From assembly GCF_000737315.1 (NCBI RefSeq), contig NZ_JMCB01000003.1, forward strand, positions 217,394 through 281,393: DNA of 64,000 nucleotides, read 5' to 3'. This DNA is from Hyalangium minutum (GTDB lineage: Bacteria; Myxococcota; Myxococcia; Myxococcales; Myxococcaceae). Below the pieces are notes generated by a model that was not told the DNA's origin, did not search any database, and saw only the letters and a program-made list of their open reading frames with translations. This document shows, one piece after another, positions 2 through 46,302 of this stretch (its first letter is position 1; each line of letters opens with the position of its first letter). The position numbers were made by a program, and so were the translations under genes.

Positions 2-3000
2 CTGCCGGGTGCGCTGCTGCTGGAGGGACTGCCCCACACGGTGAGCCTCACCAGTGGGGACGCGCGCAGTGGCACGCTCTCTCCACAGGACTTCCAGCTC
101 GTCCGCTACTACGCGGATGGGGCGCTCCTCGGCACGGTTCGCACGCCGCGCGTCGAGATGCGCAACCTGGAGGAGGATCCCACCGAGCCGCCTGAGTACG
201 TCGCCGTGCCGCTGTGGGAGCTGAGCTATGTGCCGCGCGCGGGCACCGCCGGCACGGTCGTGGCGCTGTACGCCGAGGCTGTGGATGCCCGGGGTGCCAC
301 GGCTCGCGGGGCCACCATCCTGGTTCGGATCGCGCGGGATGGGCCGCCGCTCGTCACCCTCCGGAGTCCCTCGGGGCCTCGGGTGCAAGCCACTGCGGGC
401 CGCCCCGTGCAGCTCACGGGCCTTGTCGAGGACGACACCGTGACGCTCGGGGTGGAGCTCTCCCTGTTGGTGGATGGTGCCCAGGTGAGCAGCACGCGGC
501 TGGTAGGCGAGGGGCTCGGGGGCACCCGCGCGGGCTCCGCGCCCTTCTCGATCTCCTGGACGCCTCCCGTCTCCAGCATCGGCCGGCTCGTGCGGCTGCA
601 GTTCATGGCCCGGGATGTGGGGGACCACGAGAGCCGCGCCTCACTGGAGGCCTCTGTCGTCGCGGATGCGCCTCCTCAGATCTCCCTCCAGACGCCACCG
701 CCCGGCAGCCAGGTGCTCGCGGGCACGACGCAGTTCCTCACGGCCTCGGTGGTGGATGACAGCGCGGGGCCTGTCGAGGTGACCTGGCGCGTGAACGGCG
801 TTCCCGTGGGGGCGTCGCGCTCGCCTCCGTACCGCACCTCCTGGTCCGTCCCCACGTCGGCCGCCGGGAGCACGCTCCAGCTTCAGGCCACCGCGCGGGA
901 CTCCACGGGCAACGAGGCCCAGGCCAGCGGAGAGCTCTTCGTCGTCAGCGACACCACGCGCCCCAGCATCTCCCTCGTGGTGCCGCGCCCGCTGGCGGAG
1001 GTGCCGGAGACACAGGATCTGGTGGTGTCCGTGGCGGGACAGGACGATGCCACCGTCAAGAAGGTGGAGGTGCTGCTGGAAGGGGAGGTGCTGGCCACCG
1101 ACGATGACCCCGGGCCCAACGGAACCCAGCTGGGCTCCTTCCTCACGCACACCCTGGTGCGCTCCGCCCAGCTCATGGGCCGCCAGCAGATCCGGCTGGG
1201 AGCGCGCGCGTATGACGCCTCGGGGAACGTGGGCTCGGCGCCCGAGGTGCTCGTCAAGGTGCTGCCCGATGCGCCGCCCACCGTGCGCTTCGTGCTCCCC
1301 GCGGCCAACACGCGGGCCACCATCGGCACGCCGCTGGAGTTGATCGCCGAGGCCGATGACGATGTGGCCGTCTCTTCCGTGGAGTTCTTCGCGGACGGGA
1401 ACTCTTCGTGCCGCGCCACGCTCCCGCCCTACCGGTGCACGATCACCGTGACGGGACCCGCCCGGACGCTCCACCTGCGGGCCGTGGCCTCGGATGCTGG
1501 AGGGCGCAGCAGCTCCGCGGAGGTGGCCGTCCAGGTCAGCGAGGATCGTGAGCCGCCGCTGGTGGCCTTCCGCTCTCCGTCCGAGGGCAGCTTCACCTTC
1601 GCCGGGCGGAACCTGTCCGTGGAGGTGGCGGCCAGTGACGACGTGGGCGTGCGCGATGTCCGGTTGGAACTGGACGGGCAGACGGTGGGCACCCAGAGCG
1701 GCGGCGTGGTGGATGGGCTCTACCGCCTCTTCCGCTGGCAGGTGCCCATTCCCGCGGGGGCGGCCGGTCACACGCTGGCATTCAAGGCGGTGGCCACGGA
1801 CACCTCGGGCCTCACGCGCGAGCGCTTGCTGGAGGTTCGCGCCCGCAGGGATGAGGCGCCCGCTGTCTCGCTCACCTCTCCGGCCCCCAACAGCTTCTAT
1901 AAGGAGGGAGAGGACGTCCGGCTCGTGGTGACGGTGGCGGATGACGAGGGCGTCATCGGGCTCGTGGGCCTGTCCGGTGGCCGCAGGCAGGGGACGTTGG
2001 CCCAGTCCGGGCCGCTGCTGGATGTCTCCCGGCCTCAGGCGCTTACCGTCCGCGCGCCCTCCATCTTCCGGGGTGAGCCTCCCACCGTGGGCGCCGAGGC
2101 GCGCGACACGGCCGGTCAGTCCGGTGTGGCCACGGTGATGCTGAACGTGGCGAGGGACCTCGAGCCGCCCTCGGCGCTGATGATCTCACCGCTGCCTCCC
2201 GCCACCGGCCACCTCCGGGTGAACGAAGGCGGCGCCTTCTCGCTGCGCGTGGAGGTGGAGGACGACGTGCGCGTGGTGCGCGTCGCGGCGGTGGTGGATG
2301 GGCAAGAGCTGCCCGTCGTGAATGGACGTGAGCCGCTGGGTCCTCAGAACGAGCGCTTCGAGGAGGTGCGTGTCCAGGATCCGGTGATGCCGGGGCAGAT
2401 CATCGTCAGCCGCCGCTACCTGGGCACCTTCGCGGGGACGGCGAGCCTGGCGCAGTACTCGGTGGGGCTCCACACGCTGGCGGCCCGGGCCTATGACGCG
2501 GGCGGGAATGCCACCACCACCCCGGCACTGTCCTTCGAGATCCTCGAGGTGCAGGATCTGGCACCGCCTCGGGTGACCCTGACGCTGGAGGGAGGCCCGG
2601 ATGAGCGCACGTGCGTGGCCGGAGCGCCCATGAAGCTGCGGGTCTCCGCCACGGATGACGTGTCGATCCGGGAGGCTTCGGTCACCTTCGAGGGCCAGCC
2701 CGTGACGATCCGAAACCCTCCGGAGCGCTCGCCTCGGAACTGGCAGGAGGAGATCCCCTTTCAGTTCCCGCCGCTCGGGACGGGCGGCCGCCGGACCGTC
2801 ACCTTCCTGGCCCGCGTCACGGATGGAGCCCAGCACACTGGCGTGGTGAGTCGCACTTGCGAGCTGACGCCAGATGGGCCTCCGCAGATCCTGGTGGTGA
2901 GCCCCACGGCGCGCGCGGCTCTCACGGAGGAAGGCACCGAGCCCGTCCAGGTGGACGTGAGCGATGACGTGGGCGTCCGGCGAGGGCTGAGGGTGCTGTC

Positions 3001-24000: not shown

Positions 24001-27000
24001 GGCGGTCCAGGGCCCGTGGGCGGTGCTGGTGCTGCCAGGGAGAGGGCTGTCGATCGTCAACATCGCGGATCCGGCGCAGCCCCGGGTGCGCGGCACGCTC
24101 GCGGGCACCTTCACCAAGGCCCTGGCAGGGGATGGGCTCTATGTGCAGGGGAACTCCCTTTTCGAACTCGATCTGGAGGTGCCCTCCACTCCCGTGCTGA
24201 GGAACATGGCGGTATCGGCAACGGCGGTGGACGGCACGGCCGACGGGGTCGTCTTCAACTCCTACTCCTACCTCATGGTCCGCGCGCGGCTGACCAGCGG
24301 CCTCAGTGGCTACCTGTCGCTCCTGTGGCCCGTGGGAGTGCCTCAGACGGCTCGCTGGAACGATGGGAAGCTGCTGGTCGGGACGGATCGCTCTCTCGCC
24401 GTGCTCGTCCGCAGTGGGGACAGCCTCGGCGTGGCCCAGGAGGTACCGCTGCCCGCGGGGGTTCGCGCCATGGCCGTGGCGGATGGCCGGGTCTGGCTCG
24501 CCTGCACGGACGGCAAGCTGAGATGGGTGGACGTCCGCAACCCCACGGCTGCCCAGGTCATCGCCCAGGAGGCGCTCCCGGCCCGTGCGCTCGAGGTCTC
24601 CGGAGGGTTGATGCTCGCCACGACGGCGCAGGGGATCTTCGTGCGCCGGCTTCCGAACCTGGGCGCGGCGGGCAGTGCTCTGAGTACCCCGGTGGGAGGT
24701 CTGACCCTGGATGACGCGCCTCGGGCGGTGACGTCGTTCCGGCGGGGCGTATTGGTGGCGGCAGGGCTCGCCGGCGTGCAGCGGATCGTCCTGGACGATC
24801 CTTCCCACCCCAGCCGCGTCTCCCAGTCCGTGGCGGGGTTGGCCCTGAAGCAAGTCGAGCGCACGGGCGAGCAGGTCTTCACCCTGAATGGCACGACGCT
24901 CTCGATCCACGTGGAGCAGTGGGATGGAAGCCTGGTGAGGGATGGCGGTGCCTCGGATCGGCTGGCGGCGCTCGGCAGCGTGGAGCGCTTCGCCGTCTCG
25001 CCGAGGAGGCTGTGGGCGGTGTCGGGAGGCACGGTGTCCTCGATGGGGCTGCCCTCGGTGGATCAGAAGGTGTCCCTGCTGCTGGGCTCCGCCACGCTGG
25101 ACGTGGCGGGAGACGAGACGCGTGCCGTGGTGGCCCTGGGCCGCGCGGGCGCGGCGGTGGTGCTGGTAGATGGCGCGGGGACGCTGAGGCTGGGCGCGAT
25201 GATTCCGGAGGTCCACACGGACGCGGTGGCGGTGGACGGCGACCTCGCGCTGCTGGGAGGCCCCTCGGGCTTGGCGGTGGTGGATCTCAGCGCTGCGAGC
25301 GGGCCCGTGCGCCGGGCCTCGCTGCCCACGGCGGGAGCGGTGCGCCGTGTGAGGCTGGAGGGGCGGCTGGCCCTGGTGAGCGAGGGCTCGGCGGGAGTCG
25401 AGCTGTGGAATGTCTCCCAGCCCGCCGCGCCGGTGCTCCTGGGCAAGCTGTCCACGCCGCGCGCCGAGGACGCGGTGGTGGCCGCGGGGCACATCGTCGT
25501 CGCGGACAGTGTGGCGGGCGTAAAGGTCTTCTCCCTCCCCGCGGCTGGGGTGAACCCGGTGGTTCGGGTGGTGCCGGACGCGTCCAGCGTGGAGGCGGGG
25601 TCCTGGCTGGAGGTCTCGGCGCGGGTGTCGGGCGTGCAGGTGGATACGGCCGAGCTGCTCGTGGAGGGGCAGGTGCTCAGCCGGATGGACGAGCGGGCGG
25701 CGGTGGGCCGCTACCTCGTGCCAAAGCAAGCGGTGGTCGGCCGAGAGCTGGCGGTGCAGGTCCGGGCGCGCACCGCCTCCGGAGCCGAGACACTGTCGGC
25801 TCCGGTCTTCGTGAGGGTGTCAGCGCCCACGAACCTGCCGGAGATCGTCCTCTACCCGAACTCGCCCAACTCCGGCTGGTCGTACTACTCCGCGAGCAGC
25901 ATCTCCGTGTCCGCGGTCTACGGGGGGGCCCTGGCCCCCGTCTCGGCGCGGGTCCGCTGGGCGGGACAGGACCTGGGAGCGCTGACGGTCATGGACACCT
26001 CCATCCATGGGGAGCTGCGCATGCCGGTGGTGGGAGCGGACACGACGGGGACGCTGGAGTTCGTGCTCGTCGATGCGGCGGGGCGGATCAAGACGGCCTC
26101 CGTCCCGTCCATCAGGGTGCTGGCTCCCCAGGATCCGCTCCCCCAATCCGTCTACGGGCTGCCCTCCCGCCTGTACTCGGCGCCCTATGACAACGCCTTC
26201 ACGGCTCAGGCCTACTGCTACACTTGGTGCAACGTGCGCGTGGAGCGCAATGGCGTCACCATCGCGAGCACCCTGAGTACCTCCCCGTACACCGGGTGGC
26301 GAAGCCTGCCAGTCTCGCTGGTGCTTCCGGGAGAGACCACTGGAACGCAGCAGACGCTGACGATCGTGGCCGAGGACTCGGCAGGCCGTCAGGTCCGGCA
26401 GGAGCAGCGCTACACCGTGCTCCGGGATGATCTGGTCCCGTCGGTGTCCCTCTACGCGCCGTACTCCGCTTCCGAGGGCGCGACTGTCTCCGTCTCCGCC
26501 TACGCCTCGTTCCCACCGGGGCATCAGATCCGGTCGCTGCGGTTGTTGGCCAATGGGGTCGAGATCGCCTCCGTGGTGGGCCCCACGCTATCGGGCGTGC
26601 CCTATACGTTCCCCAGTGTCAGCGTCACCTCGACCGTCCGCTTCGAGGCGATTGCCACCGATCACCTGGGGCGCGAGGGACGCGCGGAGCAACTCGCCCA
26701 GGTTCTTCCAGACGCGCCGCCCAGCGCATCTATGTATGCGTCCCCAACGCCTGTGCAGGGCTACCCGATCTACGCGTGCATCAATGCCGCGGATGACGTG
26801 AGGCTCACGGCCGTGACCTTCAAGGCGGGAGAGGAGACGTTGTGGAGCTGCACGAGCGGCTGCTCGGCCTACTTCTCCACGTCCTTCTCCAAGTGCGTCC
26901 AGAGCGCGTCTCGCTACACAGGGAGCGAGATCGTCCTGAGCGCGGAGCTCACCGACAGCGTCGGCCATACTGTCACGGAGACGCGGCCCTACGCGGTGGC

Positions 27001-29857
27001 GCAGAACCAGCCGCCGACGGTGACGCTAACGTCCAAGAGCTATCTGGTGGCCGGACAGGGGGGGACCCCTGTGTACGCGAGTGCCTATGATGAGGCCCAC
27101 ATGCAGTCGCTCAAGGTGCGGGTGGGCGACACCCTGATCGCGCAGAGCACCTCCTCCTACTATGCCCAGAGTGGTCTCTCCTGGAGCGGTTCCTACACGC
27201 CCAGCTCTCCGGAGTCGTTCGTTCTCGAGGCGGTGGCGGAGGATGGGGCGGGCCTACAGACCGTCCTGCGCAAGCAGGTGCCTGTCTTGCCCGCGGGGTC
27301 GGGGCAGAGCTGTGAGAAGCCCGTCCCGATCGGCATGGACCTCACGCTGAGGCCGCCTCAGGTGCAGCTGCAGAGCACGTTCTACTCGCGGTGTGGGACC
27401 TTCTATACGGGCTCGTGGCACACCCTGCCGTTCGACGGGCCCGTCGAGGAGATCTCCTTGAGGGCCTATTCCGACTCTTGGTACTGGCCAACCCTCATCG
27501 TGAAGGACGGCTGTGACGCCTCGGCGGCGCAGTTCTGTCCATATTCCTCGTCGTCTTCCGATGTCTCCACGCGCGCCACCTCGCTCTCCTCCCAGGCGCG
27601 TGTCTTCCTCTCTCAGGTCACAGGGGACGTTTATGTCTCCTTCGCCCGGCTGGGCATGGGCGCCCGGTGCATCCCGGGCTCTACCTCCGTGGTCTGCTCC
27701 AACAGCGTCTGCCGTGAGCAGAGCAGTGGTGAGTACCGATGCGCTCCCGAGGCCTGCAGGGATGGCCTGGACAATGACGGCGATGGGCGCGTGGACTTCC
27801 CAGCGGAGCCGGGCTGCACGTCCGCGACGGACGACGACGAGACAGACCCCGTGCCGCTCCCCACCTGCGCCAACGGGGTGGACGAGGATGAGGATGGGGC
27901 CATGGACTGGCCGGCGGAGACGGACTGCCCCTCTGCCTCCAGCAACGGGGAGCACCCGACCTCCTGCCAGGTGACGCCGCTGACCCTGCTGGGCTCCCGC
28001 ATGCGGATCGACTTCTCTCAGGCCTCGAATCTGGACGATCTGGTGTGCAGCACCTCCGGCTCGGGGCCAGACCAGGTCGTGAGGGTGGAGGTGCCAGGCC
28101 AGGCCTCGCTCTCTGGATCGCTGATGGAGCCGTACGGGTACCCAAAGACGCTGGCGCTCCGAAAGAGCTGCACGGACGGAGGAGCGTTCCTCGCCTGTGC
28201 TCCGGCGGAGTGGCAATCGGTTTGGGATGATGGACGTTGGGTATCTCAGTCTGTGGCCATGACGAGCGCGGAGGTGGGGCCCGGCTCCTACCTGTTCGTG
28301 GCGGACTCCTCGCTGCCCACCGGGTACGGCGCACCCTTGTTCCAGGTCCAAGGGCAACTCGCGGCGGACCAGCCCTGTGATCCGGCGCAGCCCTGGTTCG
28401 CCTGTCAGCAGGGACAGCGCTGCCTACCCTCGGTGGACGGTTACCAGTGCCAGGACGCCGCATGCGCCAGCGCGCAGGACGAAGATAGCGATGGGTGGAG
28501 CGGCTATCCCCAGGATCCGGGCTGTACGTCGCCGGATGATCAGGACGAGTCGGACCCCGAGACTGCACCTGCCTGCTCCAACGGTGCGGACGACGACGGC
28601 GACGGGCGTACGGACTGGCCAGCCGATCCGGGCTGCAGCTCCGCCTCGGGGAACACCGAGTCGGGAGATGGCGAGCGGTGCGAGGCACCTGCGGAAGTGA
28701 CTGCATCCACCACGGTGGTGGACTTCTCGGAGGCGGCCTCGGACGAGACGCTGCTCTGTGATGCCCGGCCTGTCGGCGACAAGGTGTTGAGCGTCCGGAT
28801 GCCAGGGGCTGGCACCATGGTGCTCACTTCCAGCCCGGAGATCTCAGCGCTGGCGCTTCGTCCGGCCTGCGCGGAGGAGCATGCGGACGTGAGATGCCTC
28901 TCGACCTTGACGGCGCCCTTGTACACCAAGGTGCCGTTGGAGGCAGGGGCCTATTCGATCGTGCTCAAGGGGACAGGGACCGCGACGCTTCGAGTCTCGG
29001 GCTTCTTGAATCACGGCGCTGGCTGCGATCCCGCGATGCCTTGGTTCAAGTGCGTGGCTCCGGCGTCCTGTACCATGGGCCCCACGGGCGCCACCTGCGT
29101 CGCTCCGGTGTGCTCGAACGGGCTGGATGACGATGGCGATGGCAAAGTGGATTTCCCGTCGGATCCAGGGTGCAGCTCGATGTGGGATATGGATGAGTCG
29201 GATCCTCCGGCGACTCCCGCCTGCCGTGACGGTGTGGACAACGATGGAGACGGGCTCACGGACTGGCCCGTCGATCCAGGCTGCGAGATCCGGGACGATC
29301 TGGATGAGGCCGATCTCTCCACGCCTCCTCAATGCTCCAACGGTGTGGACGACGACGGTGACGGCCTGATCGACTACGGCTCCGATCCGGAGTGCTCCAG
29401 TGCGGGCTCGGACAGCGAGGGTCTCTTCCAGGGCGTGCTGGCACAGCACCTGTCCTCGCAGACGTCCGGCTATTTGCCCTTCACCGCCACCAGCCGGCTC
29501 CCGCTGATGACCTGCTTCGAGTCCAACCGGGAGCTCAAGAAGGTCTTCCAGTTCGTGGCGCCCAATACGGGGCGGTACATCATTCCTCCCAGCTGGCCCT
29601 CGGGCAGAGTGCGGTTCTCCGTCGACGTGGTCGGGCCCGACCGGGGACAGATCATCTGTGCCAACGACTCCGCGCAGCTGTCGCTAAGACAGGGGGACGA
29701 GATCATCGTCACTGTCGGAGGGGATGACACCTATGGTGGGAATGGCACCGGCGGGGTGATGCAGATCCACTTCATGTACTCTGAACCGCAGCAGATCGTC
29801 TCCCCATGGCTCCCACCCCCTGAGCTCGATTGGCAGTGGACGGGCGTCATCCCATGA
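2..29857 (+). CDS. Giant modular surface/adhesin-like protein, 5'-truncated by the window edge (more than 9,938 aa in window). It has tandem bacterial Ig-like domains, seven beta-propeller(LVIVD-like)+Ig+2xIPT/TIG supermodules, and a Cys/Asp-rich Ca-binding-like C-terminus.
   Basis: A single uninterrupted frame runs from position 2 to TGA at 29855-29857 and stays open upstream of the first in-frame GTG at 41. Repeated ~100-aa units have the pattern D.PP.V.L.P...DDVAV..VEF.VDG...PY...W, which is Ig/Big-like. Fourteen IPT/TIG-like motifs (G.GF.PGA.V.FGG.PA) occur in seven pairs. LVIVD-like repeats are present (LRVLDVRDP..., LAVVDLSRPAQP...). The C-terminus has CxNGxDDDGDGxxDxPxDPGC repeats. All antisense ORFs there are compositionally junk. 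Confidence 0.85.
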   Translation: MPGALLLEGLPHTVSLTSGDARSGTLSPQDFQLVRYYADGALLGTVRTPRVEMRNLEEDPTEPPEYVAVPLWELSYVPRAGTAGTVVALYAEAVDARGATARGATILVRIARDGPPLVTLRSPSGPRVQATAGRPVQLTGLVEDDTVTLGVELSLLVDGAQVSSTRLVGEGLGGTRAGSAPFSISWTPPVSSIGRLVRLQFMARDVGDHESRASLEASVVADAPPQISLQTPPPGSQVLAGTTQFLTASVVDDSAGPVEVTWRVNGVPVGASRSPPYRTSWSVPTSAAGSTLQLQATARDSTGNEAQASGELFVVSDTTRPSISLVVPRPLAEVPETQDLVVSVAGQDDATVKKVEVLLEGEVLATDDDPGPNGTQLGSFLTHTLVRSAQLMGRQQIRLGARAYDASGNVGSAPEVLVKVLPDAPPTVRFVLPAANTRATIGTPLELIAEADDDVAVSSVEFFADGNSSCRATLPPYRCTITVTGPARTLHLRAVASDAGGRSSSAEVAVQVSEDREPPLVAFRSPSEGSFTFAGRNLSVEVAASDDVGVRDVRLELDGQTVGTQSGGVVDGLYRLFRWQVPIPAGAAGHTLAFKAVATDTSGLTRERLLEVRARRDEAPAVSLTSPAPNSFYKEGEDVRLVVTVADDEGVIGLVGLSGGRRQGTLAQSGPLLDVSRPQALTVRAPSIFRGEPPTVGAEARDTAGQSGVATVMLNVARDLEPPSALMISPLPPATGHLRVNEGGAFSLRVEVEDDVRVVRVAAVVDGQELPVVNGREPLGPQNERFEEVRVQDPVMPGQIIVSRRYLGTFAGTASLAQYSVGLHTLAARAYDAGGNATTTPALSFEILEVQDLAPPRVTLTLEGGPDERTCVAGAPMKLRVSATDDVSIREASVTFEGQPVTIRNPPERSPRNWQEEIPFQFPPLGTGGRRTVTFLARVTDGAQHTGVVSRTCELTPDGPPQILVVSPTARAALTEEGTEPVQVDVSDDVGVRRGLRVLSTSAVAVPGIGSFEVTATAAHEGLGVPSATLIPGDGPGFSVEALEGRLLISPPGEGQGTGTTAPGRLRLNVEPSPAGHGALAQVRFRYVVKPGHEGSTALQSFRSAFPDGVGSVTLSAPAFSADLSFPSQDIEMEEVDIQLSKASANAEELAVTRLGLRGWGTPQLQLRAEAAGERVAVQRWNTGVAPSRPGQVKRIDEAVWLPRGQAPRDSQLTVLAEDVAGLVGRVAIPIVARTDTDPPTASIVSPGNGASVVEDTVFEVQVSAQDNARLDQLELWVDGQSRQVMRVGPGPSGSPQAHRFSLSLPLPASGYPAALSVVARDGAGNATASDTAYVRVIPDVAPSVTFQSLTSAVESFTRTELDSGYVVMLQGVPATLGMLLEDDAGLASMRVQFGDQVVKEESFTGAPLTAGRQVTFTPPVGRDGAPVVLLVSLTDSAGHTRQTRLLIESRRPRPPALALAAPTPGATIAEGSIQLLFDAVAVDDTGVDHVQLFINGQPALILTRGEPIAWNLDPQSGAVVVADPALRQAVASLPPEDQDLQRLRHYRGQVKLPPGFVALVPGRTDAALQLRTIAADKEGHETVLDQPLRIEADVATPLVEVLRPVLGRNVVEGTSVLVEVSARDNVLVDRVEILAGPSASELRVVHTAGGFPPTNAVPGSPFDVYAPLVQYAFTVPTLAQLGSTVPVPYFVAARARDISGNWTAPADFVIQPIEIIQDQPPGVSILSPADGTPAVANSTITVSVMAEDDVAVGNVRLEVDGTPLPVTLHAPPFSFHVPVPDRAGELRLRAVAVDSGGHQVGSQVVILPLRDDLAPTVAVAQPRPEARLTEGRDFALVVAAQDDVAIRSVEVLVEGGLAGPLRLVASNLPYSFRVPLPPGSAGRTLRIVARARDSAGHESVAPEVTALAVADTSRPTVAWLRPAAGSQALEGSVVELEVDARDDVAVNSLELRLNDQPLAIMPTPPFRMTYHVPAQGGGQALVFSAIARDPSGNQTVETRRLEIAEDEPPSVSVIAPTRLVVGNPALLRAQASDDVAVTEIGFHVGSDPAALSEVARRYQLPYEFRYAATEADVGKVLTIRGRAMDLAGHEAWSVPVQALVVPDTPPTVAVRKPLAGEAIFEGQRLRLEVEATDVEGPIKQVAFFVDGRKVHVATTPAGIPGSPNLFATSYSPPVGSGNRLLRITAVAVDSANQETESAPVVVGTVRDTVPPETQLVDPMVWELVTEAEPVEWTAAALDESAVVGVRFLVDGQQVGPPSTVPRPGPSNRPLYYGTWLPPSGAAGQTRTLTAEATDPSQNVGRAEPVTVELGMRPEPAVELVVEPYARRQAGMAADGEGLVIHGALLKDVPLPPPNDTVKRDEGRLALARLDLNGLAPLGTVKVTGSPVSQTLLGRLALVAMGPVFDPVGKKTIPAQLQVVDLSNTAVPRLRGVVDLPSDDVHQVVARDRLAFVANGTSGVAVLELGNPDAPQRAFTRPTVGPARGVAVTDQWLLVAAGSGGLRVLDVRDPYLRELGFVALPGEANRVEVVGSRAYVGCSNAQAPLAVVDLSRPAQPRLMSLLSHAPRRPDLLASEVTDVAVSGGVALVTTAITDQDAEPVKGILSASTVKADGAASTFVRANLPGARDVLFSQGRPVALLGDSAMGAFTLPRLAVTDVSPVDGTGQVPPTAQVTVTFSRLLQGASVTEQTVLLRAQDAVLGPVVPATVTVNETRILVAPRAPLPTNTEIFLTVLPTVTGEGGVTLGERFVSRFRTSPVDGLPPQVADVQPPAGPVDGGTRVRVWGLHFAPGARVLFSGQEATQVQVAADGRSLDAVTPPNLEGAVVVTVVNPNGLEGSLLGGFLYLQILDVSMVVPATGSLAGGNLVELSGSGFQRGATVRFDGVPATDVRVLSPGRISLRTPPGHFGTVDVRVDNPDGRYVVKPDAFLYSNLVVSRVLGRHIPDPQYDGPIRPAEKLPQGVPRAVVMQGGLAWLLSDGTAALQAHSPEELLQDSIQAAVTLVDVSDPDNAAVRSGVSIAPPYQPRALAVRGTTAYVAADAAELPYVDVVGEGGPSLLVVDASVLQAPRMVTAVPFEGTARAVAVADDLALVAAGAGGLAVFSVADPLRPVLTGSIQSMRVRGEVRAVNVVDVAASGRYALVRAGTNAGTFTLVLDLATPGIEVVGEASDLGPMALQGRRGLTLGNGQIRTLSFSPPTWPRNLVGMSSLVGGTPVTVAVGPHVGAAGTEVSRPGNSGSGKLEVSLSADPSRPRAVDAVDLYPAARFGGVAVERDVAVISISALLTKKGEVVADPTLALGSDGLAVVRMPFLMGMRSQPADGDTEVPPSTPLRLEFNREVAGASPQTVRLIRQDGSVNGVVEPAEIQTLGRTVLLLPAQPLAPSTTYRVVADQLTDALTRAEMAGPFYLEFSTASSSAAMPVSISGLTPREGPAAGGTLVTVTGTGFEPGATVRFGGVPATQVTVSEDGTQLTARTAANTAGAATLEVTNPSGSVARRLGAFLFTQPLSVLAAAPGRGPASGGTRVILSGTGFSSTGTVQVRFGGVPALRTRVLGLNRLEVYTPRGLRGTVDIQVTNPDGSQATLEDGFIFDQPGGASVALSDRPVDVVVIGDSALVLQRGGLSVVDLSGLYLKGPLKDTPIPPDLVDGLVDVDNDRKDDRLVSFLPIPDALSLAYPSTWGHRLFVGTGGWDSKLQQWTAGEVLEVAIADLAHPAISARTAAVEGPVFGLDVKDERLLAATGQKGLSSFDRSYAPFLVGQLPMQGAAQSVAGSAGMAVVGVGQRDATSFAVSAGALRIVSTEASPSLRGALPLNIQRARWKGDVAVVAAGDAGLVLVSAANPDQPQVLASVLVGGFAWDVRLQGNLAYVAAGTAGVAVVDLTDLLHPRVLYHVTGARGGTAKLVEMTAGGRLVSMRDRGTQGWSVDFGRPSELAVVSASVAPDEVVPLSLPSVTVTLSAGLLHTSAPEAFSFTANGAPVPGTLEAGTPELPVSTLVFRPSEPLPSGAELRLALGTSLRSLLGDALIAPFEVRFFAAGGTGERPQLLQVVPRVGPSEGGTEIELLGTGFVPGTTVRIGAAPALVLSLSSTRMTVRVPPGEPGLADVVVVHPSGVTARRSGGYFYSAPLFASASIPRFLNPKGGSTVRVTGRGFLPTWSSPLGSTRVLIRGLPARSVSVESTTQLVAVAGPGSFGDADVELVAADGLQRASSPSPVGYGLPFSGKVVGASVRPVALAGNPALPLLPFAAAGASVEGNTFPQPYTGPMTGGGLVPESFRMVAYDVTRVGRPELAGASVVDPPDHDVDYLIGSLPYLAQRELPLPEVELMPDSFDVALRGTQLLVANGASGLAVIDASGTTLEQWPLLGRGGIGSVLGQEYATRLLATPTGAWVFSNPLEDNLLPEEIPCKSPTDEHYPAAGSGGQLQLFDTRSPSDPVLLGSIGSGSAQEPYGATVAGGRLLVAMGNHAGVIYCTETPFPPPPWASLTTGRRTRFLGLDPSDDYRSEDAPIIMMKTPHGALELYDSAGVGAQRLARRPYPYSLTDVVVVRDVAIASAAEFGLIFFDVRPDNPQAPQELLRLPFDQSLSNTPGHPERLRLIGDLLFVAASSGSVYVLDVSDPRHPEFLSGGNTEFAYDVLPVGDRLMLASRQELTELSMPFLLPLSTTPERDALVPPSLSQLEVRFNRPLAPATVNDISVQLIGPSGPVPLELSVVAEHATLTYAVRAQLPEEGLEPGATYEVRIASTVADQRGGGMIRPFRTAFRTGAAGSHAPRIDAVQPSAVSMAGGQQVVIQGSGLSGVASVRIGGATASFTAAGDTELHVTVPPSTRPGPADVRIEDAGGPWSLLPHGVLYLSPLASAHASLVPDHGPVEGGTEVKVSFSGASPVAPGTRVFIGDREGVNVDVVSLSTLRFTTPRPDGPGLVPVKLERPGEVSETVGYFSYDLPTGTTVDLPGFPPRETSEVVLSGDLLFAGVPTAGYEGLELFNIRVPEHPVRLGGLRTEGAVRGLDARGALALLATDAFGLVAVDVQDTARPFTVGRGATAGLATGIRLEGNVAHVSVTQMDGGAGYVQTFDVSQPSLPLLSTTPLTEDALALDHAPGRFYALTSNVRTGQPDGLRLTVYTRQGQRLGGVVVDATPRSYAELVRSRLTVRGGRAYVTLGSRLYVFDMSDETAPQVLQSTELGAPARGLTWAGGSLLVSTTGSSTLVTVPPTDLLVVGTSPVNGALASPLTSIRVDMSLPVREDTVTAGTFEVVQVGSAGPVPVPGHREVVFATRGSSLVFTPEDPLEPGAQIEVKVEGVLGFDTRPLAHPASFAFTVAGEDALQPWVERLEPASGLFTDFTATTVRGAGFRQGVTVRIAGQNATVVSVQEDQLGIVVPPSLTSAGPASVEVIDPSGLSAVRLGGFLYREPLRLALLSPDRAPQQGGVAVELRGTGFMPGLVVRFGGTGSFQVDVPSMERAVAVAPPHAQGLVDVEAVLGSQSAVKARSFLYGTGAVSRLPTPPVRDVRVEGTVAYVALGGETEIVGLDAEGHLITLEQRRKTDSGGLMVADLSEPTVAREIRRVNVSAQGGVRRMARAGNTLYLAAGSAGVVAVDVSQPANASETLRLSVQGEAVDVVTAGSLIFVADGSGVRVFRTGETEQPMLVAQRALPGGASALALYGGLLLVSNASATDARLYVLDARRGDLAPLAQEAHLPLSAPARHIAVEGTRAFVSLGRAGQVAIVELADPTAPAPAGTLVLKDELHQGWTSAEQTLVAGDVVWVAGGGGKVQRFAALVGQQPQWLETASVLGDAKALARSGRYLMAGTLLLDVNGRPVEMPLADTRDAAGTLTGGLVSVALDHLELRGTVPVAGAVVQVGVVPEVLLSALPDMATAGAVRLEGTDGVEVRVARQGRADTEGGRLALIPQSPLAVGTDYVLRVGGTLADLAGRPLGTDVGVRFRTGPIASPEQPVITAMSPVTGLEAGGDTAVLTGEGFMPGCQVWVGDTLASGVTVSSDGGRITLIVPPGPAGAAAVRVRNPNGLEALQLGLYRYLVAPELTQVSPAQAPFNSRQRVVLTGKGFAATTQVTFGGRPALHPVMDSQGRISVEVPDDVTGVVEVAVATPMPGGALVARRPDGFTYTLKPLGGVGGNTEALAVAGRVLLAARAGRLVAFDLTRPGDLPEVANVPGVTSAGGLVVSGDEAWLAGQGEVVRYALEGCGAGLPVSCPLQVVERIPLVASGVASVAAGQGSAYVTVAGGSDVVLLGRVDGATRVVAQVNVGPGVVRGVAMAGPVLAVLVQGSQSSRLELRDVADGSLTLVGEVPGLYWTVNRLAAEGTRVAVASGAGVRLYETAEPAVPVELGRFEGQGSAYTVALSGPWALASGDFGLAWLDTTQGLKRRTSGSTYGWAGNVAVGAGVAVAASAYELRAFELPYPTVTGQEPSPGGALPREAAVSVTLADRLPPSVVQGTAMELVGPAGAISGTRTVQGSAVLFRPSAVLTPGERVQARVTLGATPYVGGTVLGPWTWSILPSAEAPSLRVDALVPDHGDVSGGYPVVLAGAGFDAQTQVWFGTRAATVVPPVSTDAIHVLAPASPVPGPVRVRVSPGVAGTPVDVPGGFVYLAPLAISRVTPPRVDLGGGAVTVEGTGFNRSLTARLGGLVAPVSDFTPTSFKLSVPAGPSGWLALEVAQAGTPPVTLAQAVLRADGVAPTVTAWEPLDTVGTGQVPLNSIFTVRFNEPIDPATATHVRLVRQGGTVPESGTHTVAPDGLSVTFTPAAALPSTTAFTLSAAGVADLFGNAIANTAAARKDFRSRDVVPPNVYVRLESSTEPLAPGTLLAAEVSWSFRVVASDDSGQVSLRQLWVDGAAVSVDWDGKATYRWPAIMSSRPSTLKVRAEDSAGNGTESEVTVQVVEDMPPTVAITQPSTPVVQVEQGVSLTVALAASDNHGVSAVELRLDGVPIKRASSLTGTNATLSHVLYLPTQGTYQLTALAMDDRGQLTSSESVSVQVLPDTTPPQLAWVLPMAGTKLIGGGRYPLQVSATDLNGVAEVSFRIDGQLVATRTAPPWSMDWDAPAVTSAGTRLLEARARDAQGNEAGASQTVTVAPPSTSRPTIVLDGFSTSYGYPEGTAVTVRARVTSEIPLQSVRLSLGAETVTLTQPPWQLTFVAPRVPPPSQLVRLRGTAVDLLGRESFPVEYDVTVQDDGRQPVLALDMNPQGPSLLGGSTLQVGGLDGGVLTGTVVRVSEVLQPAETDGGYTLPFEPEAAPVRVSARMDAWDGGMVTLERQGTLTAFANGATVSVAAADEPVLDLATSGPWEWVARDQSGGHTRLELRDAATQALTAERSLDGTAVAVAFERGRAVVALRTGGRGRVDMMSVPALETVGSFSVRRIPRALETTSFGLAIGTDEGLELWSSGGMLASRLPLGDVLGVSAEGDRLAVLTNSTLYEVDASVPHAPALVASVPVAGATGVVALADARRCVVGATARCFRVEGTALTLQGEARLPDTAIAADGPGPWLLAGTASGLSVVDARGAPSMAGYYPALAGRVAAGDGRIVAAAPGRSSLLKLRRSVGAPTVHLELPPSAAPGARVPVVASVEGLSDPRDGYTAELRVRGTAVQVLKGRLPQSVDLPRDGTAAQVALRVVDLAGHEALAQGTVALVDDGAGPALAALQARAEVPSGAFFSLAAVPADPARVASVEYSVDSTVLGRADAPALAWRLRAPTVSTDTAFTVSAVALDAQGRRGAPVQASVWVRAGTGAALPTVSLARVGTGSIQEGTEVRVRATLTPSVPVAEVRFKMDGEEQQRLMLPPYEAVLRMPVGTGSRGVTVEAVAVDDQGRESAAALLPLTVVDDLTPPVVALEVDPSGEVLTAGSRVRATAIASDGGALESWSVRALLANVELASGGGRLDFTVPASTPAGTLVEIVATARDVAGNVATSRVTKTVLAPVLPDGGVVVAGDFVGADRLTLRGDFVYATTPRGLAVGRVRWGETPTIEPVSFLATDVAPSSLAVQGPWAVLVLPGRGLSIVNIADPAQPRVRGTLAGTFTKALAGDGLYVQGNSLFELDLEVPSTPVLRNMAVSATAVDGTADGVVFNSYSYLMVRARLTSGLSGYLSLLWPVGVPQTARWNDGKLLVGTDRSLAVLVRSGDSLGVAQEVPLPAGVRAMAVADGRVWLACTDGKLRWVDVRNPTAAQVIAQEALPARALEVSGGLMLATTAQGIFVRRLPNLGAAGSALSTPVGGLTLDDAPRAVTSFRRGVLVAAGLAGVQRIVLDDPSHPSRVSQSVAGLALKQVERTGEQVFTLNGTTLSIHVEQWDGSLVRDGGASDRLAALGSVERFAVSPRRLWAVSGGTVSSMGLPSVDQKVSLLLGSATLDVAGDETRAVVALGRAGAAVVLVDGAGTLRLGAMIPEVHTDAVAVDGDLALLGGPSGLAVVDLSAASGPVRRASLPTAGAVRRVRLEGRLALVSEGSAGVELWNVSQPAAPVLLGKLSTPRAEDAVVAAGHIVVADSVAGVKVFSLPAAGVNPVVRVVPDASSVEAGSWLEVSARVSGVQVDTAELLVEGQVLSRMDERAAVGRYLVPKQAVVGRELAVQVRARTASGAETLSAPVFVRVSAPTNLPEIVLYPNSPNSGWSYYSASSISVSAVYGGALAPVSARVRWAGQDLGALTVMDTSIHGELRMPVVGADTTGTLEFVLVDAAGRIKTASVPSIRVLAPQDPLPQSVYGLPSRLYSAPYDNAFTAQAYCYTWCNVRVERNGVTIASTLSTSPYTGWRSLPVSLVLPGETTGTQQTLTIVAEDSAGRQVRQEQRYTVLRDDLVPSVSLYAPYSASEGATVSVSAYASFPPGHQIRSLRLLANGVEIASVVGPTLSGVPYTFPSVSVTSTVRFEAIATDHLGREGRAEQLAQVLPDAPPSASMYASPTPVQGYPIYACINAADDVRLTAVTFKAGEETLWSCTSGCSAYFSTSFSKCVQSASRYTGSEIVLSAELTDSVGHTVTETRPYAVAQNQPPTVTLTSKSYLVAGQGGTPVYASAYDEAHMQSLKVRVGDTLIAQSTSSYYAQSGLSWSGSYTPSSPESFVLEAVAEDGAGLQTVLRKQVPVLPAGSGQSCEKPVPIGMDLTLRPPQVQLQSTFYSRCGTFYTGSWHTLPFDGPVEEISLRAYSDSWYWPTLIVKDGCDASAAQFCPYSSSSSDVSTRATSLSSQARVFLSQVTGDVYVSFARLGMGARCIPGSTSVVCSNSVCREQSSGEYRCAPEACRDGLDNDGDGRVDFPAEPGCTSATDDDETDPVPLPTCANGVDEDEDGAMDWPAETDCPSASSNGEHPTSCQVTPLTLLGSRMRIDFSQASNLDDLVCSTSGSGPDQVVRVEVPGQASLSGSLMEPYGYPKTLALRKSCTDGGAFLACAPAEWQSVWDDGRWVSQSVAMTSAEVGPGSYLFVADSSLPTGYGAPLFQVQGQLAADQPCDPAQPWFACQQGQRCLPSVDGYQCQDAACASAQDEDSDGWSGYPQDPGCTSPDDQDESDPETAPACSNGADDDGDGRTDWPADPGCSSASGNTESGDGERCEAPAEVTASTTVVDFSEAASDETLLCDARPVGDKVLSVRMPGAGTMVLTSSPEISALALRPACAEEHADVRCLSTLTAPLYTKVPLEAGAYSIVLKGTGTATLRVSGFLNHGAGCDPAMPWFKCVAPASCTMGPTGATCVAPVCSNGLDDDGDGKVDFPSDPGCSSMWDMDESDPPATPACRDGVDNDGDGLTDWPVDPGCEIRDDLDEADLSTPPQCSNGVDDDGDGLIDYGSDPECSSAGSDSEGLFQGVLAQHLSSQTSGYLPFTATSRLPLMTCFESNRELKKVFQFVAPNTGRYIIPPSWPSGRVRFSVDVVGPDRGQIICANDSAQLSLRQGDEIIVTVGGDDTYGGNGTGGVMQIHFMYSEPQQIVSPWLPPPELDWQWTGVIP

Positions 29858-30723
29858 GGCCCTCAAGCGGAATAGGCAGCTGGCTCGTGTTGGCCCTCGC
29901 GGTGCTGTCCGGGTGCGATGACTCGCGAACGGTGGCGAAGGTGGGGCGCACGGGCCTGACGGTGGAGGACGTGACGCAGCTGCGCGCCGCGCAGAGCCCG
30001 AGCGTCCGCGCCGCGCCGGAGCAGACGCTGGAGGTGCTGGTGGATCGCGCCCTGCTGGCCGAGGAGGCCCGGCGCCAGAAACTGCACGAGCAGCCCACGG
30101 TGAAGGCCCAGCTCGCGGCCGCCGAGCGGGAGCTCCTGGCGCATGCGGTGCTGGAGCGGGCGGTGGCTCCCAGCGTGACGGACGAGGCGCTGCGCGCGCG
30201 CTACGAGGCCGCGCGCTCCCGGCTGGAGCGCCGCGAGGTGCACGTGGCCCAGATCTTCGCGCGGATGCCCGAGGGCTCTGATGAGAAGACTCGGCGCCAG
30301 GCGCAGGTGCGCATCAACCAAGCCTATGCCCGGCTCGCGGGCGGAGAGCCTTTCGAGACCGTGGCGCGCGAGCTGTCCGAGGACTTGGTGAGCGCGCCCC
30401 AAGGAGGAGAGCTCGGCGTGGTTCGGGAGGGAGGAGTGGATCCAGCGTTCTTCGCCCAGGCCGTGGCGCTGGCCGCAGGCGCTTGGTCCAAGCCGTTCAT
30501 CACGCCCTTCGGCTGGCACGTGGTGAAGGCGCTTGAGGCGTCGAAGACGGTGGTGCCCTCCTTTGATGAGGCGAGAGGTGTGCTGGAGTCCGAGGCGCGC
30601 CAGGAGGCCCAGGCGAAGCTGATGGAGCGGCTGCGTCAGGAGATCTCGGTCCGTCGCTACCCGGAGCGGCTCAAGCTGGCAGAGGAGAAGAGCAAGCCCC
30701 AGGGCGAGGGGGAGGCGAGATGA
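29854..30723 (+). CDS. Peptidyl-prolyl cis-trans isomerase, parvulin (PpiC) type. It is a PrsA/SurA-like foldase lipoprotein.
   Basis: The ATG at 29854 overlaps the TGA of the giant gene (ATGA). The N-terminus MRPSSGIGSWLVLALAVLSGCDD is a signal peptide with an LSGC lipobox. The C-terminal parvulin signature is PFITPFGWHVVKALE. A SurA-like N-terminal chaperone region rich in A/E/R helices is present. Confidence 0.85.
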   Translation: MRPSSGIGSWLVLALAVLSGCDDSRTVAKVGRTGLTVEDVTQLRAAQSPSVRAAPEQTLEVLVDRALLAEEARRQKLHEQPTVKAQLAAAERELLAHAVLERAVAPSVTDEALRARYEAARSRLERREVHVAQIFARMPEGSDEKTRRQAQVRINQAYARLAGGEPFETVARELSEDLVSAPQGGELGVVREGGVDPAFFAQAVALAAGAWSKPFITPFGWHVVKALEASKTVVPSFDEARGVLESEARQEAQAKLMERLRQEISVRRYPERLKLAEEKSKPQGEGEAR

Positions 30724-44768: not shown

Positions 44769-44780
44769 CCCGGCATATAG

Positions 44781-46247: not shown

Positions 46248-46302
46248 GGCACCGGAGACTACCCAAGGGGTCGCTCGCCGTCATGCCGCTCTTTCAGGTA
46301 GG

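Follow-up and report, generated by a model that had tools for sequence, protein, structure and literature searches.

Organization of the locus

The analysed window, a 64,000-nucleotide stretch of the Hyalangium minutum genome, begins inside a giant gene, ORF1, which is followed on the same strand by the genes for a parvulin-type PPIase lipoprotein and an RHS/YD-shell lipoprotein, ORF2 (Table 1). ORF1 occupies nucleotides 2–29857 of the plus strand (29,856 nt) and contains 9,951 sense codons and the stop codon TGA at 29855–29857. The length of 9,938 residues given in the first-pass annotation of this DNA is the count from the first in-window GTG, at nucleotide 41. The start codon of the PPIase gene overlaps the stop codon of ORF1 in the sequence ATGA, and the start codon of ORF2 overlaps the stop codon of the PPIase gene in the same manner.

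Table 1. Features of the giant gene and its two downstream neighbours (nucleotide positions within the window; residues numbered from the first in-window codon of ORF1)
Feature	Position (nt)	Strand	Residues and details	Evidence
N-terminal stalk, ~20 tandem Big_7-like Ig domains	2..6934	+	aa 1–2311	Pfam Big_7 E 3.5e-51, 6.6e-48; HMM map
Seven supermodules	7169..20083	+	each LVIVD 7-bladed beta-propeller–Big_5–TIG–TIG	
Extra Big_5 domain, then four Big_7-like Ig domains	20084..21577	+	aa 6695–6790; aa 6800–7192	Pfam, HMM map
Propeller-like region, kin to supermodule propellers	21719..22672	+	aa 7240–7557	Self-derived HMM, self-BLAST
Four Ig domains	22670..23818	+	aa 7557–7939	HMM map; weak Big_7/Big_13 matches
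Propeller-like region, probably two propellers	23843..25543	+	aa 7948–8514	Pfam, self-BLAST, HMM map
Six Ig domains	25541..27295	+	aa 8514–9098	HMM map
Hyalangium-clade C-terminal extension	27296..29854	+	aa 9099–9951 (~850 aa); Cys-/Asp-rich	NF033662 E 1.2e-30
Acidic double-disulfide repeats	27749–27931, 28457–28639, 29105–29398	+		NF033662
PPC/CBD-like beta-sandwiches (putative)	27950–28279, 28664–29011	+		Low-confidence model, Foldseek; homologs
Parvulin-type PPIase lipoprotein	29854..30723	+	289 aa; lipobox LSGC	Pfam Rotamase E 1e-18
ORF2, RHS/YD-shell lipoprotein	30720..44768	+	4,682 aa; lipobox LATAC	

ORF1 is a single intact coding gene

The mean open run in a random frame with the base composition of ORF1 is about 56 codons, and a run of 9,951 open codons has a probability of about 1e-78. 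The GC content of the window is 70%, and an antisense open frame of 3,127 codons is also present within the ORF1 region; therefore, openness by itself is weak proof of coding. The decisive evidence is the codon-position composition. The GC1/GC2/GC3 values of ORF1 are 0.73/0.53/0.88 overall, and GC3 lies between 0.81 and 0.91 in each of ten 3-kb bins. Comparison with orthologs yielded dN/dS ratios of 0.2–0.6, and ORF1 is under purifying selection. The internal repeats of ORF1 are 25–45% identical as protein. Among nucleotide-level matches within the gene, the best covers 183 nt with 70% identity, and no exact repeat exceeds 19 nt. Since the DNA is essentially non-repetitive, repeat collapse is not a concern.

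An intact frame of more than 29.8 kb without a frameshift, consistent coding periodicity, and repeating module boundaries had been proposed from the letters alone. All three hold: frame 2 is open from nucleotide 2 to 29857, GC3 is about 0.88 with all ten bins in agreement, and the boundaries recur at the protein level in self-BLAST and in an iterated HMM map. The accompanying worry about mis-assembly is answered by the minimal repetition of the DNA and by the intact orthologs in independent assemblies from seven lineages. Spurious long frames do occur at 70% GC, as the antisense example in the same region shows, but the explanation of ORF1 as an artefact (a chance GC-rich frame, an assembly that is chimeric or has collapsed repeats, or a pseudogene undergoing decay) is refuted by GC3 sustained throughout the frame, many in-frame Pfam domains, the dN/dS ratios, the lack of DNA-level repetition, and complete orthologs of 9,679–10,495 aa in seven independent lineages, one of them in a 9.3-Mb single-record genome. 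ORF1 is a real, intact, single giant coding gene.

N-terminus and full size

The 5′ end of ORF1 is outside the window, as the first-pass annotation stated; it further described the export signal and the true size as unknown, and both can be approached through an ortholog. The N-terminus was taken from L001, a locus in a related Hyalangium MAG whose giant protein is 84% identical to ORF1. Relative to the window edge, the L001 frame opens approximately 415 codons and its first ATG lies approximately 400 codons upstream, and, judged from this ortholog, about 400 codons of the H. minutum gene are missing from the window. The N-terminus of the L001 protein, MRCMAGVGERVRLCLWVLALVLPLTAWSAAV, is a Sec-type signal peptide. 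No known domain besides the signal peptide was found in the roughly 400-residue N-terminal region of L001, including in relaxed Pfam scans. The full H. minutum gene would comprise about 10,350 codons, and ORF1 would represent its 3′ 96%. Complete orthologs of 10,495 and 10,480 aa were identified. The earlier placement of the protein among the largest bacterial proteins was overstated. With about 10,350 aa, the product is large yet well below the record: predicted proteins of bacteria extend to 85,804 aa (bioRxiv 10.1101/2023.11.21.568195), and over 41,000 UniProtKB entries are longer than 5,000 aa (PMC11573180).

Domain architecture of the giant protein

The product of ORF1 is predicted to be an all-beta array of about 75 Ig-like and beta-propeller domains. 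Pfam searches and the iterated HMM map assigned 34 Big_7-like Ig domains, 8 Big_5 domains, and 14 TIG domains, in addition to the propeller regions, and the Pfam HMM search bore out the domain types named previously, that is Ig (Big_7, Big_5), IPT/TIG, and LVIVD. NCBIfam matches were obtained for NF058597 and NF033662, together with weak matches to choice-of-anchor B and choice-of-anchor Z repeats. The seven supermodules start at residues 2390, 2977, 3669, 4258, 4910, 5446, and 6084, and the seventh ends at residue 6694. Their LVIVD repeats (PF08309), which are propeller-forming, score above the Pfam threshold, and one propeller fold was modelled. Within the N-terminal stalk, residues 1105–1233 have no domain assignment.

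The first propeller-like region downstream of the supermodules (aa 7240–7557) has no Pfam match above the threshold, and self-BLAST of ORF1 aligned residues 7424–7575 with residues 8043–8196. The second region contains a weak LVIVD match at residues 8406–8436. Orthologs from Stigmatella and Melittangium stop at the point equivalent to the end of the six-Ig block, residue 9098. Sequence searches of the PDB with a supermodule, the late propeller region, and the tail gave no match, and no enzyme or toxin family was found in ORF1 with Pfam or NCBIfam.

The C-terminal tail contains five or more units of the form C-x-DG-x-DNDGDG-x-x-D-x-P-x-DPGC, in which the cysteine and aspartate columns are invariant. 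The first-pass annotation had listed calcium-binding repeats, and acidic double-disulfide repeats of the NF033662 type with DxDxDG-type motifs are indeed present; that they bind calcium is suggested by the motif. A 550-residue module of the tail is common to stand-alone proteins at 30–34% identity, and homologs of the tail contain PPC domains. The structure model of the tail has a pLDDT of 57.8, which is low confidence, and its Foldseek matches were the collagen-binding domains of ColG, PPC domains, and CUB-EGF-CUB. The likeness of the tail to PPC/CBD domains is only suggestive. The final 150 or so residues make up a terminal domain without an assignment. The tail is present in L007 and L008 and absent from L002, L003, L006, and L090. 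An interpretation of the low-GC tail as a swapped toxin domain was rejected, as the acidic-repeat/PPC-like module is conserved within the Hyalangium clade.

Downstream genes of the operon

The PPIase matches the H. minutum protein P0056 at 100% identity, and the nearest solved structures are those of the periplasmic chaperones SurA, HP0175, and PrsA. ORF2 begins with an N-terminal Ig array (Glucodextran_B, Big_13, Big_5) and a TTR-like CarboxypepD_reg domain, and continues with DUF6531, RHS repeats (E 5.7e-56), PT-HINT (E 7e-24), and a C-terminal deaminase-like toxin (HAE...PTCKLC), which gave a weak match to MafB19-like deaminases with HAE...PCxxC motifs. By its predicted domains, ORF2 fits an Rhs/YD polymorphic toxin, in which an RHS shell is combined with a releasing domain and a toxin at the C-terminus. 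A relaxed Pfam scan of its middle region returned no match, and no homologous segment common to ORF1 and ORF2 was found. The end of a convergent kinase gene lies 13 nt past the ORF2 stop codon. The sole plus-strand immunity candidate after ORF2 (44784–45335) has no family match, including in relaxed Pfam scans, and its codon bias is ambiguous.

No match to an NHL propeller was found in ORF2, though YD-shell/RHS repeats and DUF6531 are present, which sets it apart from bacterial teneurin-like proteins (TLPs). The identification of ORF2 with the published H. minutum TLP was rejected: that protein of 2,032 aa contains NHL repeats and is encoded by a different gene, which matches ORF2 weakly within the YD repeats, at 24–31% identity.

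Conservation of the cassette

Giant orthologs were reached using the PPIase gene as an anchor, and the direct homolog search gave nothing longer than 1,748 aa. The order giant gene–PPIase–RHS is kept in seven independent Myxococcota lineages, down to a PPIase identity of 47% and a giant-protein identity of roughly 31–45%. The ATGA overlaps are conserved at L002, L003/L006, L007, L008, and L090. A scan of metagenomes with a PPIase profile recovered mostly generic parvulins, and only L009–L011 were orthologous. Three Myxococcus-type loci (L004, L010, L089) retain only the PPIase gene or genes and the RHS gene, and therefore the Rhs protein is not strictly dependent on an adjacent giant gene. The linkage of ORF1 to an RHS toxin, regarded as unusual by the first-pass annotation, is real; it is not a peculiarity of this genome but part of a conserved, translationally coupled three-gene cassette, including the PPIase gene that the annotation did not mention. 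Conserved gene order is to be read as a sign of co-expression, and not of physical or functional partnership. No description of the giant–PPIase–RHS cassette was found in the literature searched, which is absence of evidence within that scope.

Export and surface anchoring

The giant protein has the tandem Ig-like stalk of a fibrillar adhesin and, in the L001 ortholog, an export signal of the Sec type. The propellers and the PPC/CBD-like sandwiches of the low-confidence model are possible binders, and no match to a characterised adhesive family was found in ORF1. Searches for a cell-surface anchor in ORF1 revealed no LPxTG motif, transmembrane or hydrophobic segment, beta-barrel family, or lipobox. 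A MYXO-CTERM or choice-of-anchor sorting tail is absent, as the C-terminus of ORF1, ...PPPELDWQWTGVIP, contains no hydrophobic segment, and NCBIfam matched only NF033662 in the last 996 residues. ORF1 contains no RTX nonapeptide repeats (zero matches to the GGxGxDxUx motif and no HemolysinCabind match), and genes for a type 1 secretion system (ABC transporter, MFP, TolC) are missing both from the window and from the region upstream in L001. Pfam detected no TPS domain or FHA beta-helix repeats in ORF1 or in the ortholog N-terminus, and there is no TpsB gene nearby. The description of the protein as a typical giant adhesin is thus supported as far as composition is concerned, which fits giant surface and adhesin-type proteins; it is still only a putative adhesin, as searches turned up neither an anchor nor a characterised adhesive domain nor a dedicated secretion system. 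We assume that the protein is displayed on the surface of its Gram-negative host. The route poses an export puzzle: a diderm cell would have to fold and position a 1.1-MDa Sec substrate for which no outer-membrane route or anchor is known.

Proposed function of the giant protein

Based on the architecture and gene order described above, we propose, with a probability of roughly 0.6, that ORF1 encodes a Sec-exported, adhesin-like fibre, which is the first product of a coupled operon, is co-expressed with the Rhs toxin, and probably works with it. Sec would carry the giant protein, the PPIase, and the Rhs lipoprotein across the inner membrane. The dedicated PPIase, a foldase of the SurA/PrsA/HP0175 type, may aid the folding in the envelope of two very long, proline-rich (8% Pro) chains of beta-domains, and so probably acts as the chaperone of both the giant protein and the Rhs protein. 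The giant protein is presumably extracellular or surface-located and would form a long multivalent binding fibre, either an adhesin or a matrix fibre. Its ligand-binding surfaces may be the propellers and the PPC-like tip, the disulfide-rich acidic tip being found in Hyalangium only. The fibre may take part in the cell-contact process through which the Rhs lipoprotein would intoxicate neighbouring cells, in kin discrimination or antagonism, after release of the ORF2 deaminase-like toxin by HINT.

Alternatively, the giant protein may be a stand-alone adhesin or matrix fibre that takes no part in intoxication. It would then share the operon only because the giant and Rhs proteins, both exported, beta-rich, and very long, have a common need for the dedicated PPIase, or because the cell requires both under the same conditions. 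This explanation is possible, if somewhat unlikely. The PPIase–RHS pair occurs without the giant gene in the three Myxococcus-type loci, ORF1 and ORF2 lack a homologous segment, and ORF1 lacks any toxin-related or pre-toxin domain; however, gene order and 4-nt overlaps are kept in seven lineages, beyond what convenience usually maintains. If the linkage were mere co-regulation, ORF1 would encode yet another giant, uncharacterised surface protein in a social soil bacterium, of value for annotation and little surprise.

We regard as doubtful the more ambitious version of the cooperative reading, in which the giant protein and the parvulin are dedicated accessories of a Sec-dependent, T6SS-independent Rhs toxin system of Myxococcota, the fibre serving to capture or bridge the target cell and to present the Rhs lipoprotein. 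If true, it would supply the "missing delivery machinery" of the large myxobacterial Rhs/teneurin-like toxins, and the cassette would represent a new type of contact-dependent antagonism apparatus. The cassette is a genetically testable candidate for the display or delivery of large Rhs toxins.

It is improbable that the giant protein is itself a delivery apparatus, a stalk or translocator that would inject or carry the Rhs cocoon into target cells by analogy with TcA of the Tc toxins or the CdiA filament of contact-dependent inhibition. The conserved, translationally coupled cassette would suit such a role, and publications on teneurin-like and Sec-dependent Rhs toxins identify no machinery for their delivery (PMC13018210, PMC10433427). 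However, ORF1 is all-beta and has no helical pore or translocation domain, TPS/FHA repeats, or hydrophobic segment, and RHS orthologs occur without an adjacent giant gene.

A role of ORF1 as a polymorphic toxin in its own right, with the variable C-terminal end as the toxic module, is very improbable. The C-terminal end varies by genus: Hyalangium has the extension of 850 aa, Stigmatella and Melittangium have no extension, and the tails of Corallococcus and L090 are of other kinds. The H. minutum tail also has a lower GC content, 0.66, and the highest dN/dS in ORF1 (0.5–0.58). Nevertheless, the tail consists of acidic disulfide repeats and PPC-like sandwiches with no toxin fold and is conserved within the Hyalangium clade, no PT-HINT, VENN, PT-TG, or RHS domain was found in ORF1, and the next gene encodes a conserved PPIase and not a variable immunity protein.

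Comparison with known systems

Giant Ig-repeat fibrillar adhesins include Ebh of S. aureus, with about 10,000 aa, an adhesin of Mobiluncus mulieris with 7,651 aa (PMC10619420), SiiE of Salmonella, and adhesins of the RTX type, for example LapA and MpIBP. Similar to the giant Ig-repeat adhesins, ORF1 encodes a single chain of thousands of residues dominated by a tandem Ig-like stalk, with putative ligand-binding modules towards one end, an acidic, extracellular-type composition, and fast evolution. It differs from them in its predicted Sec-dependent export in a diderm without RTX repeats and a type 1 secretion system, LPxTG, or a recognised anchor, in the interleaving of ten or so beta-propellers in a regular propeller–Big_5–TIG–TIG supermodule, and in the operon coupling to a PPIase and an Rhs toxin.

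Adindla et al. (2004, PMC2447325) predicted a beta-propeller fold for the LVIVD repeats (PF08309) of cell-surface proteins, and those of ORF1 are likewise modelled as a beta-propeller. LVIVD surface proteins usually have one propeller and a sorting signal, whereas ORF1 carries many propellers in one chain of 10,000 residues and, unlike choice-of-anchor proteins, has no PEP-CTERM, MYXO-CTERM, or other choice-of-anchor tail.

The closest relatives of ORF2, and not of ORF1, are the large Sec-dependent Rhs proteins of myxobacteria, Rhs4 and Rhs5 of M. xanthus, and the bacterial teneurin-like proteins (PMC10433427, PMC13018210). As in these proteins, the product of ORF2 is a YD-shell lipoprotein or signal-peptide protein exceeding 4,000 aa. 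Its N-terminal part is rich in Ig domains and its C-terminal toxin is of the polymorphic type, and its delivery is presumed to be independent of the T6SS. The large signal-peptide Rhs proteins of M. xanthus mediate T6SS-independent kin discrimination, by a delivery route given as unknown (PMC10433427), and a 2026 study of bacterial teneurin-like toxins reports no evident delivery machinery (PMC13018210). In the passages that term searches brought up, neither paper mentions a giant gene upstream or a PPIase gene.

The arrangement of the locus resembles that of the Tc (ABC) toxins, in which the gene for a very large receptor-binding protein also adjoins the gene for a toxin enclosed in an RHS shell; in both cases the two products presumably cooperate. 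TcA, a pentameric binding and translocation subunit of about 2,500 aa with an alpha-helical pore-forming channel, is encoded beside the RHS cocoon TcB-TcC. ORF1, in contrast, is all-beta, lacks any channel-like region, and is four times as long, and the likeness is one of gene-arrangement logic only. Relative to the NF033662 acidic double-disulfide proteins, which carry metal-binding motifs of the thrombospondin type-3-like or MopE-like kind, the Hyalangium module is distinguished by its fusion to the end of a giant stalk.

The giant gene is an intact coding frame

The giant gene ORF1 extends on the plus strand through 9,951 sense codons, from nucleotide 2 to the TGA at 29855–29857, without an internal stop. 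The 9,938 residues given in the first-pass annotation result from the ORF listing, in which the count starts at position 41, with the earliest GTG inside the window. Openness alone is weak evidence for ORF1, because the window, with a GC content of 70%, holds spurious long open frames; this composition accounts for the two long antisense frames (3,127 and 1,027 codons), which are artefactual. A random frame of ORF1 composition is expected to stay open for about 56 codons on average. ORF1 was accepted as a coding frame on its codon-position composition, since GC1/GC2/GC3 are 0.73/0.53/0.88 over the whole gene, and GC3 is 0.81–0.91 in all ten 3-kb bins. Both the uninterrupted frame of more than 29.8 kb and the coding periodicity noticed at first pass thus stand. 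The accompanying worry about collapsed tandem modules can be set aside: the internal repeats are only 25–45% identical in protein, Tandem Repeats Finder detected a single array, a trivial one of 29 nt, and at the DNA level the gene matches itself at best over 183 nt (70%), with no exact repeat longer than 19 nt, so there is nothing for an assembler to collapse. The reading of ORF1 as an artefact was rejected.

The 5′ end lies outside the window, as first noted, and the signal and true size, then given as unknown, can be deduced from orthologs. The ortholog in L001, a Hyalangium sp. metagenome contig, shares 84% identity with the first 400 in-window residues. Its frame is open for about 415 codons ahead of the first codon of the window, with the earliest ATG about 400 codons ahead, and the N-terminus, MRCMAGVGERVRLCLWVLALVLPLTAWSAAV, is a typical Sec (SPI) signal peptide. 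Complete gene calls in independent assemblies of two close relatives (L007 and L008) are 10,495 and 10,480 residues long. From these orthologs we infer that the full H. minutum protein is Sec-exported and has about 10,350 residues. It does not belong "among the largest bacterial proteins", since predictions reach 85,804 residues (bioRxiv 10.1101/2023.11.21.568195), and more than 41,000 proteins above 5,000 residues are catalogued, the bacterial ones being chiefly NRPS/PKS and surface proteins (PMC11573180).

Purifying selection acts on the giant gene, which evolves at the faster pace that exposed proteins typically show: the N-terminal part has a dN/dS of 0.27 against L001 and the last 3,300 ORF1 codons have 0.42 against L007, compared with 0.17 for the PPIase. 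An exhaustive HMMER search with residues 7200–8399 returned, out of 1.84 billion cluster representatives, only 36 with E ≤ 1e-30. Of these 36, about 20 are colinear, and the longest reach 6,000–7,700 residues, a ceiling that is probably contig-limited. The family is small and, judging from named records, confined to Myxococcota. The longest sequence returned from a 5.8-billion-protein set has 1,748 residues, and giant orthologs are therefore invisible there. One protein, P0102 (1,530 residues, 73% identical), is encoded on a contig as long (656,347 nt) as that of the PPIase ortholog P0066 and may represent a piece of the giant gene from that locus, split up in gene calling.

Domain organisation and the Hyalangium tail

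Pfam searches found the Ig types Big_7 and Big_5, TIG and LVIVD, confirming the expected domain repertoire, and NCBIfam placed a choice-of-anchor-Z repeat on the TIG units. The domain map was built with HMMs iterated on the protein itself. ORF1 contains neither RTX nonapeptides nor LPxTG in a motif search, and no hydrophobic segment (19-residue Kyte-Doolittle maximum 1.89). Cysteine is nearly lacking in the first ~8,500 residues and plentiful in the tail.

Features of the window and of related loci (aa, ORF1 residues from the iterated HMM map; other positions, nucleotides)
Feature	Position	Strand	Remark
~20 Ig domains	aa 1–2311		
Seven supermodules	aa 2390–6694		LVIVD propeller-Big_5-TIG-TIG
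One additional Big_5, then four Ig domains	between aa 6694 and 7240		
Propeller-like region	aa 7240–7557		
Four Ig domains	between aa 7557 and 7948		
Double propeller-like region	aa 7948–8514		
Six Ig domains	end at aa 9098		
Tail, 853 aa	after aa 9098 to C-terminus		
Tail module	27689–29400		
Antisense frame, 3,127 codons	11909–21292	−	spurious; opposite ORF1
Antisense frame, 1,027 codons	60917–64000	−	faces three + strand genes, GC3 0.91–0.97
Region around ORF2 toxin end	43800–45400		GC falls to 0.63
Ser/Thr kinase gene	44781–46247	−	convergent; ends 13 nt past ORF2 stop
Sole + strand immunity-gene candidate	44784–45335	+	no family match
YhgA-like (Transposase_31) gene	46186–47517		just past ORF2 toxin end
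Genes upstream of giant gene	L001 980–7218		
Parvulin paralogs in giant gene's usual place	L004 5751–10969; L010 8856–10834; L089 7800–10891		precede RHS ortholog

The ~850-residue tail is shared with two close Hyalangium relatives at 50–82% identity. The Stigmatella and Melittangium orthologs end without it, at the equivalent of residue ~9,100, and other C-terminal ends occur in the giants of Corallococcus sp. M34 and of the distant L090, the latter terminating in a PPC-like domain. The GC content of the tail is 0.66 versus 0.72, and its dN/dS of 0.50–0.58 is the highest within the gene. At least five C-x-DG-x-DNDGDG-x-x-D-x-P-x-DPGC units alternate with ~115-residue sandwiches, and the cysteine and aspartate columns are invariant across the tail-module alignment. 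NCBIfam NF033662, "acidic double-disulfide repeat", matches within the last 996 residues (E 1.2e-30). A 550-residue block of this layout is common to stand-alone proteins of 750–1,700 residues at 30–34% identity, some annotated with PPC domains. Because the same module exists as stand-alone proteins, the sequences suggest that the tail arose by fusion of a stand-alone acidic-repeat/PPC-like gene. The tail module forms the core of the hypothetical proteins P0001–P0035 (750–1,700 residues), whose named records are mostly Myxococcota MAGs, one being labelled Woesearchaeota. With a poor AlphaFold model of the tail (pLDDT 57.8), Foldseek matched ColG collagen-binding domains, CUB-EGF-CUB arrays and a collagenase PPC domain (TM 0.69 on target). 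The tail may be a captured ligand-binding tip.

Linkage to a parvulin PPIase gene and an RHS toxin gene

The 289-residue parvulin PPIase (lipobox LSGC) has an ATG that overlaps the stop of ORF1, and its own stop in turn overlaps the ATG of the 4,682-residue ORF2 (lipobox LATAC). The PPIase is 100% identical to a peptidyl-prolyl isomerase of Hyalangium minutum, and its closest relatives of solved structure, SurA, HP0175 and PrsA, are periplasmic chaperones. ORF2 contains Ig arrays, a TTR-like domain, DUF6531, RHS repeats (E 5.7e-56) and PT-HINT (E 7e-24), followed by a C-terminal domain with deaminase-type motifs HAE...PTCKLC. No homologous segment was found between ORF1 and ORF2, and no immunity gene is recognisable downstream of the ORF2 toxin end. 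The YhgA-like gene may be relevant to swapping of the toxin tip; RtcA and housekeeping genes also lie downstream. Upstream of the giant gene, L001 carries HEAT-repeat, TPR plus cyclic-nucleotide-binding and MshEN-domain genes, which may be regulatory neighbours, and a 396-residue ORF of unknown function. MshEN domains bind c-di-GMP.

Loci collected with the PPIase as anchor (protein lengths in residues)
Locus	Source	Giant	PPIase	RHS
L002	Stigmatella sp. ncwal1	9,740	289	4,160
L003	Melittangium boletus (single 9.3-Mb record)	10,033	282	4,313
L006	'[Archangium] primigenium'	10,034	282	4,194
L005	Corallococcus sp. M34	9,679	259	4,521
L007	Hyalangium relative	10,495	278	4,714
L008	Hyalangium relative	10,480	288	4,497
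L090	uncultured lineage, PPIase only 47% identical	9,946	282	4,070

The giant-PPIase-RHS order occurs in seven independent lineages, including the window and counting L003 and L006, 97.3% identical in DNA over the whole loci, as a single lineage that bears two names. Both junctions retain their ATGA overlap in all seven lineages but Corallococcus sp. M34, and a partial metagenome locus (L011) has the same arrangement. The RHS linkage pointed out in the first-pass annotation is therefore real but not peculiar to this genome. In three Myxococcus-type loci (L004, L010 and L089) the RHS ortholog comes after two or three parvulin paralogs, and a giant gene is absent upstream. Since they keep the pair, PPIase-RHS is the conserved core, and the giant gene a frequent, ancient first gene that is dispensable in cis.

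Proposed role and comparison with known systems

We propose that the giant protein is a multivalent binding fibre that is exported through Sec and has no enzymatic activity. It would be expressed together with a dedicated envelope foldase and a large Rhs toxin lipoprotein, and would probably take part in the same cell-contact process as the toxin. This combined reading is the best supported, with a probability of about 0.6. That the protein is real, exported, adhesin-like and a member of the operon is highly probable; its functional cooperation with the Rhs protein is somewhat less likely than not. The main competing explanation, an independent adhesin or matrix protein that has no more than chaperone and regulation in common with the RHS gene, is somewhat unlikely; the loci keeping PPIase-RHS without a giant gene speak for it, and the conserved gene order and stop/start overlaps against it. 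A role of the giant protein as the apparatus that delivers the Rhs toxin is possible; however, no translocation-type domain supports such a role. Neither the window genes nor the upstream genes in L001 include a secretion system or outer-membrane partner. The idea that ORF1 is itself a toxin was rejected.

No description of the giant-PPIase-RHS cassette was found in the literature searched. In M. xanthus, kin discrimination independent of the T6SS is mediated by large (~4,000-residue) Rhs proteins with signal peptides, by a delivery route given as unknown (PMC10433427). H. minutum is among the species listed in a 2026 study of teneurin-like toxins of bacteria, which describes obvious delivery machinery as absent (PMC13018210). 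The teneurin-like protein of H. minutum DSM 14724 in its supplement has 2,032 residues and an NHL propeller; its identity with ORF2 was rejected by sequence comparison, which shows a different gene. H. minutum therefore has genes for at least two large toxins of the YD-shell type.
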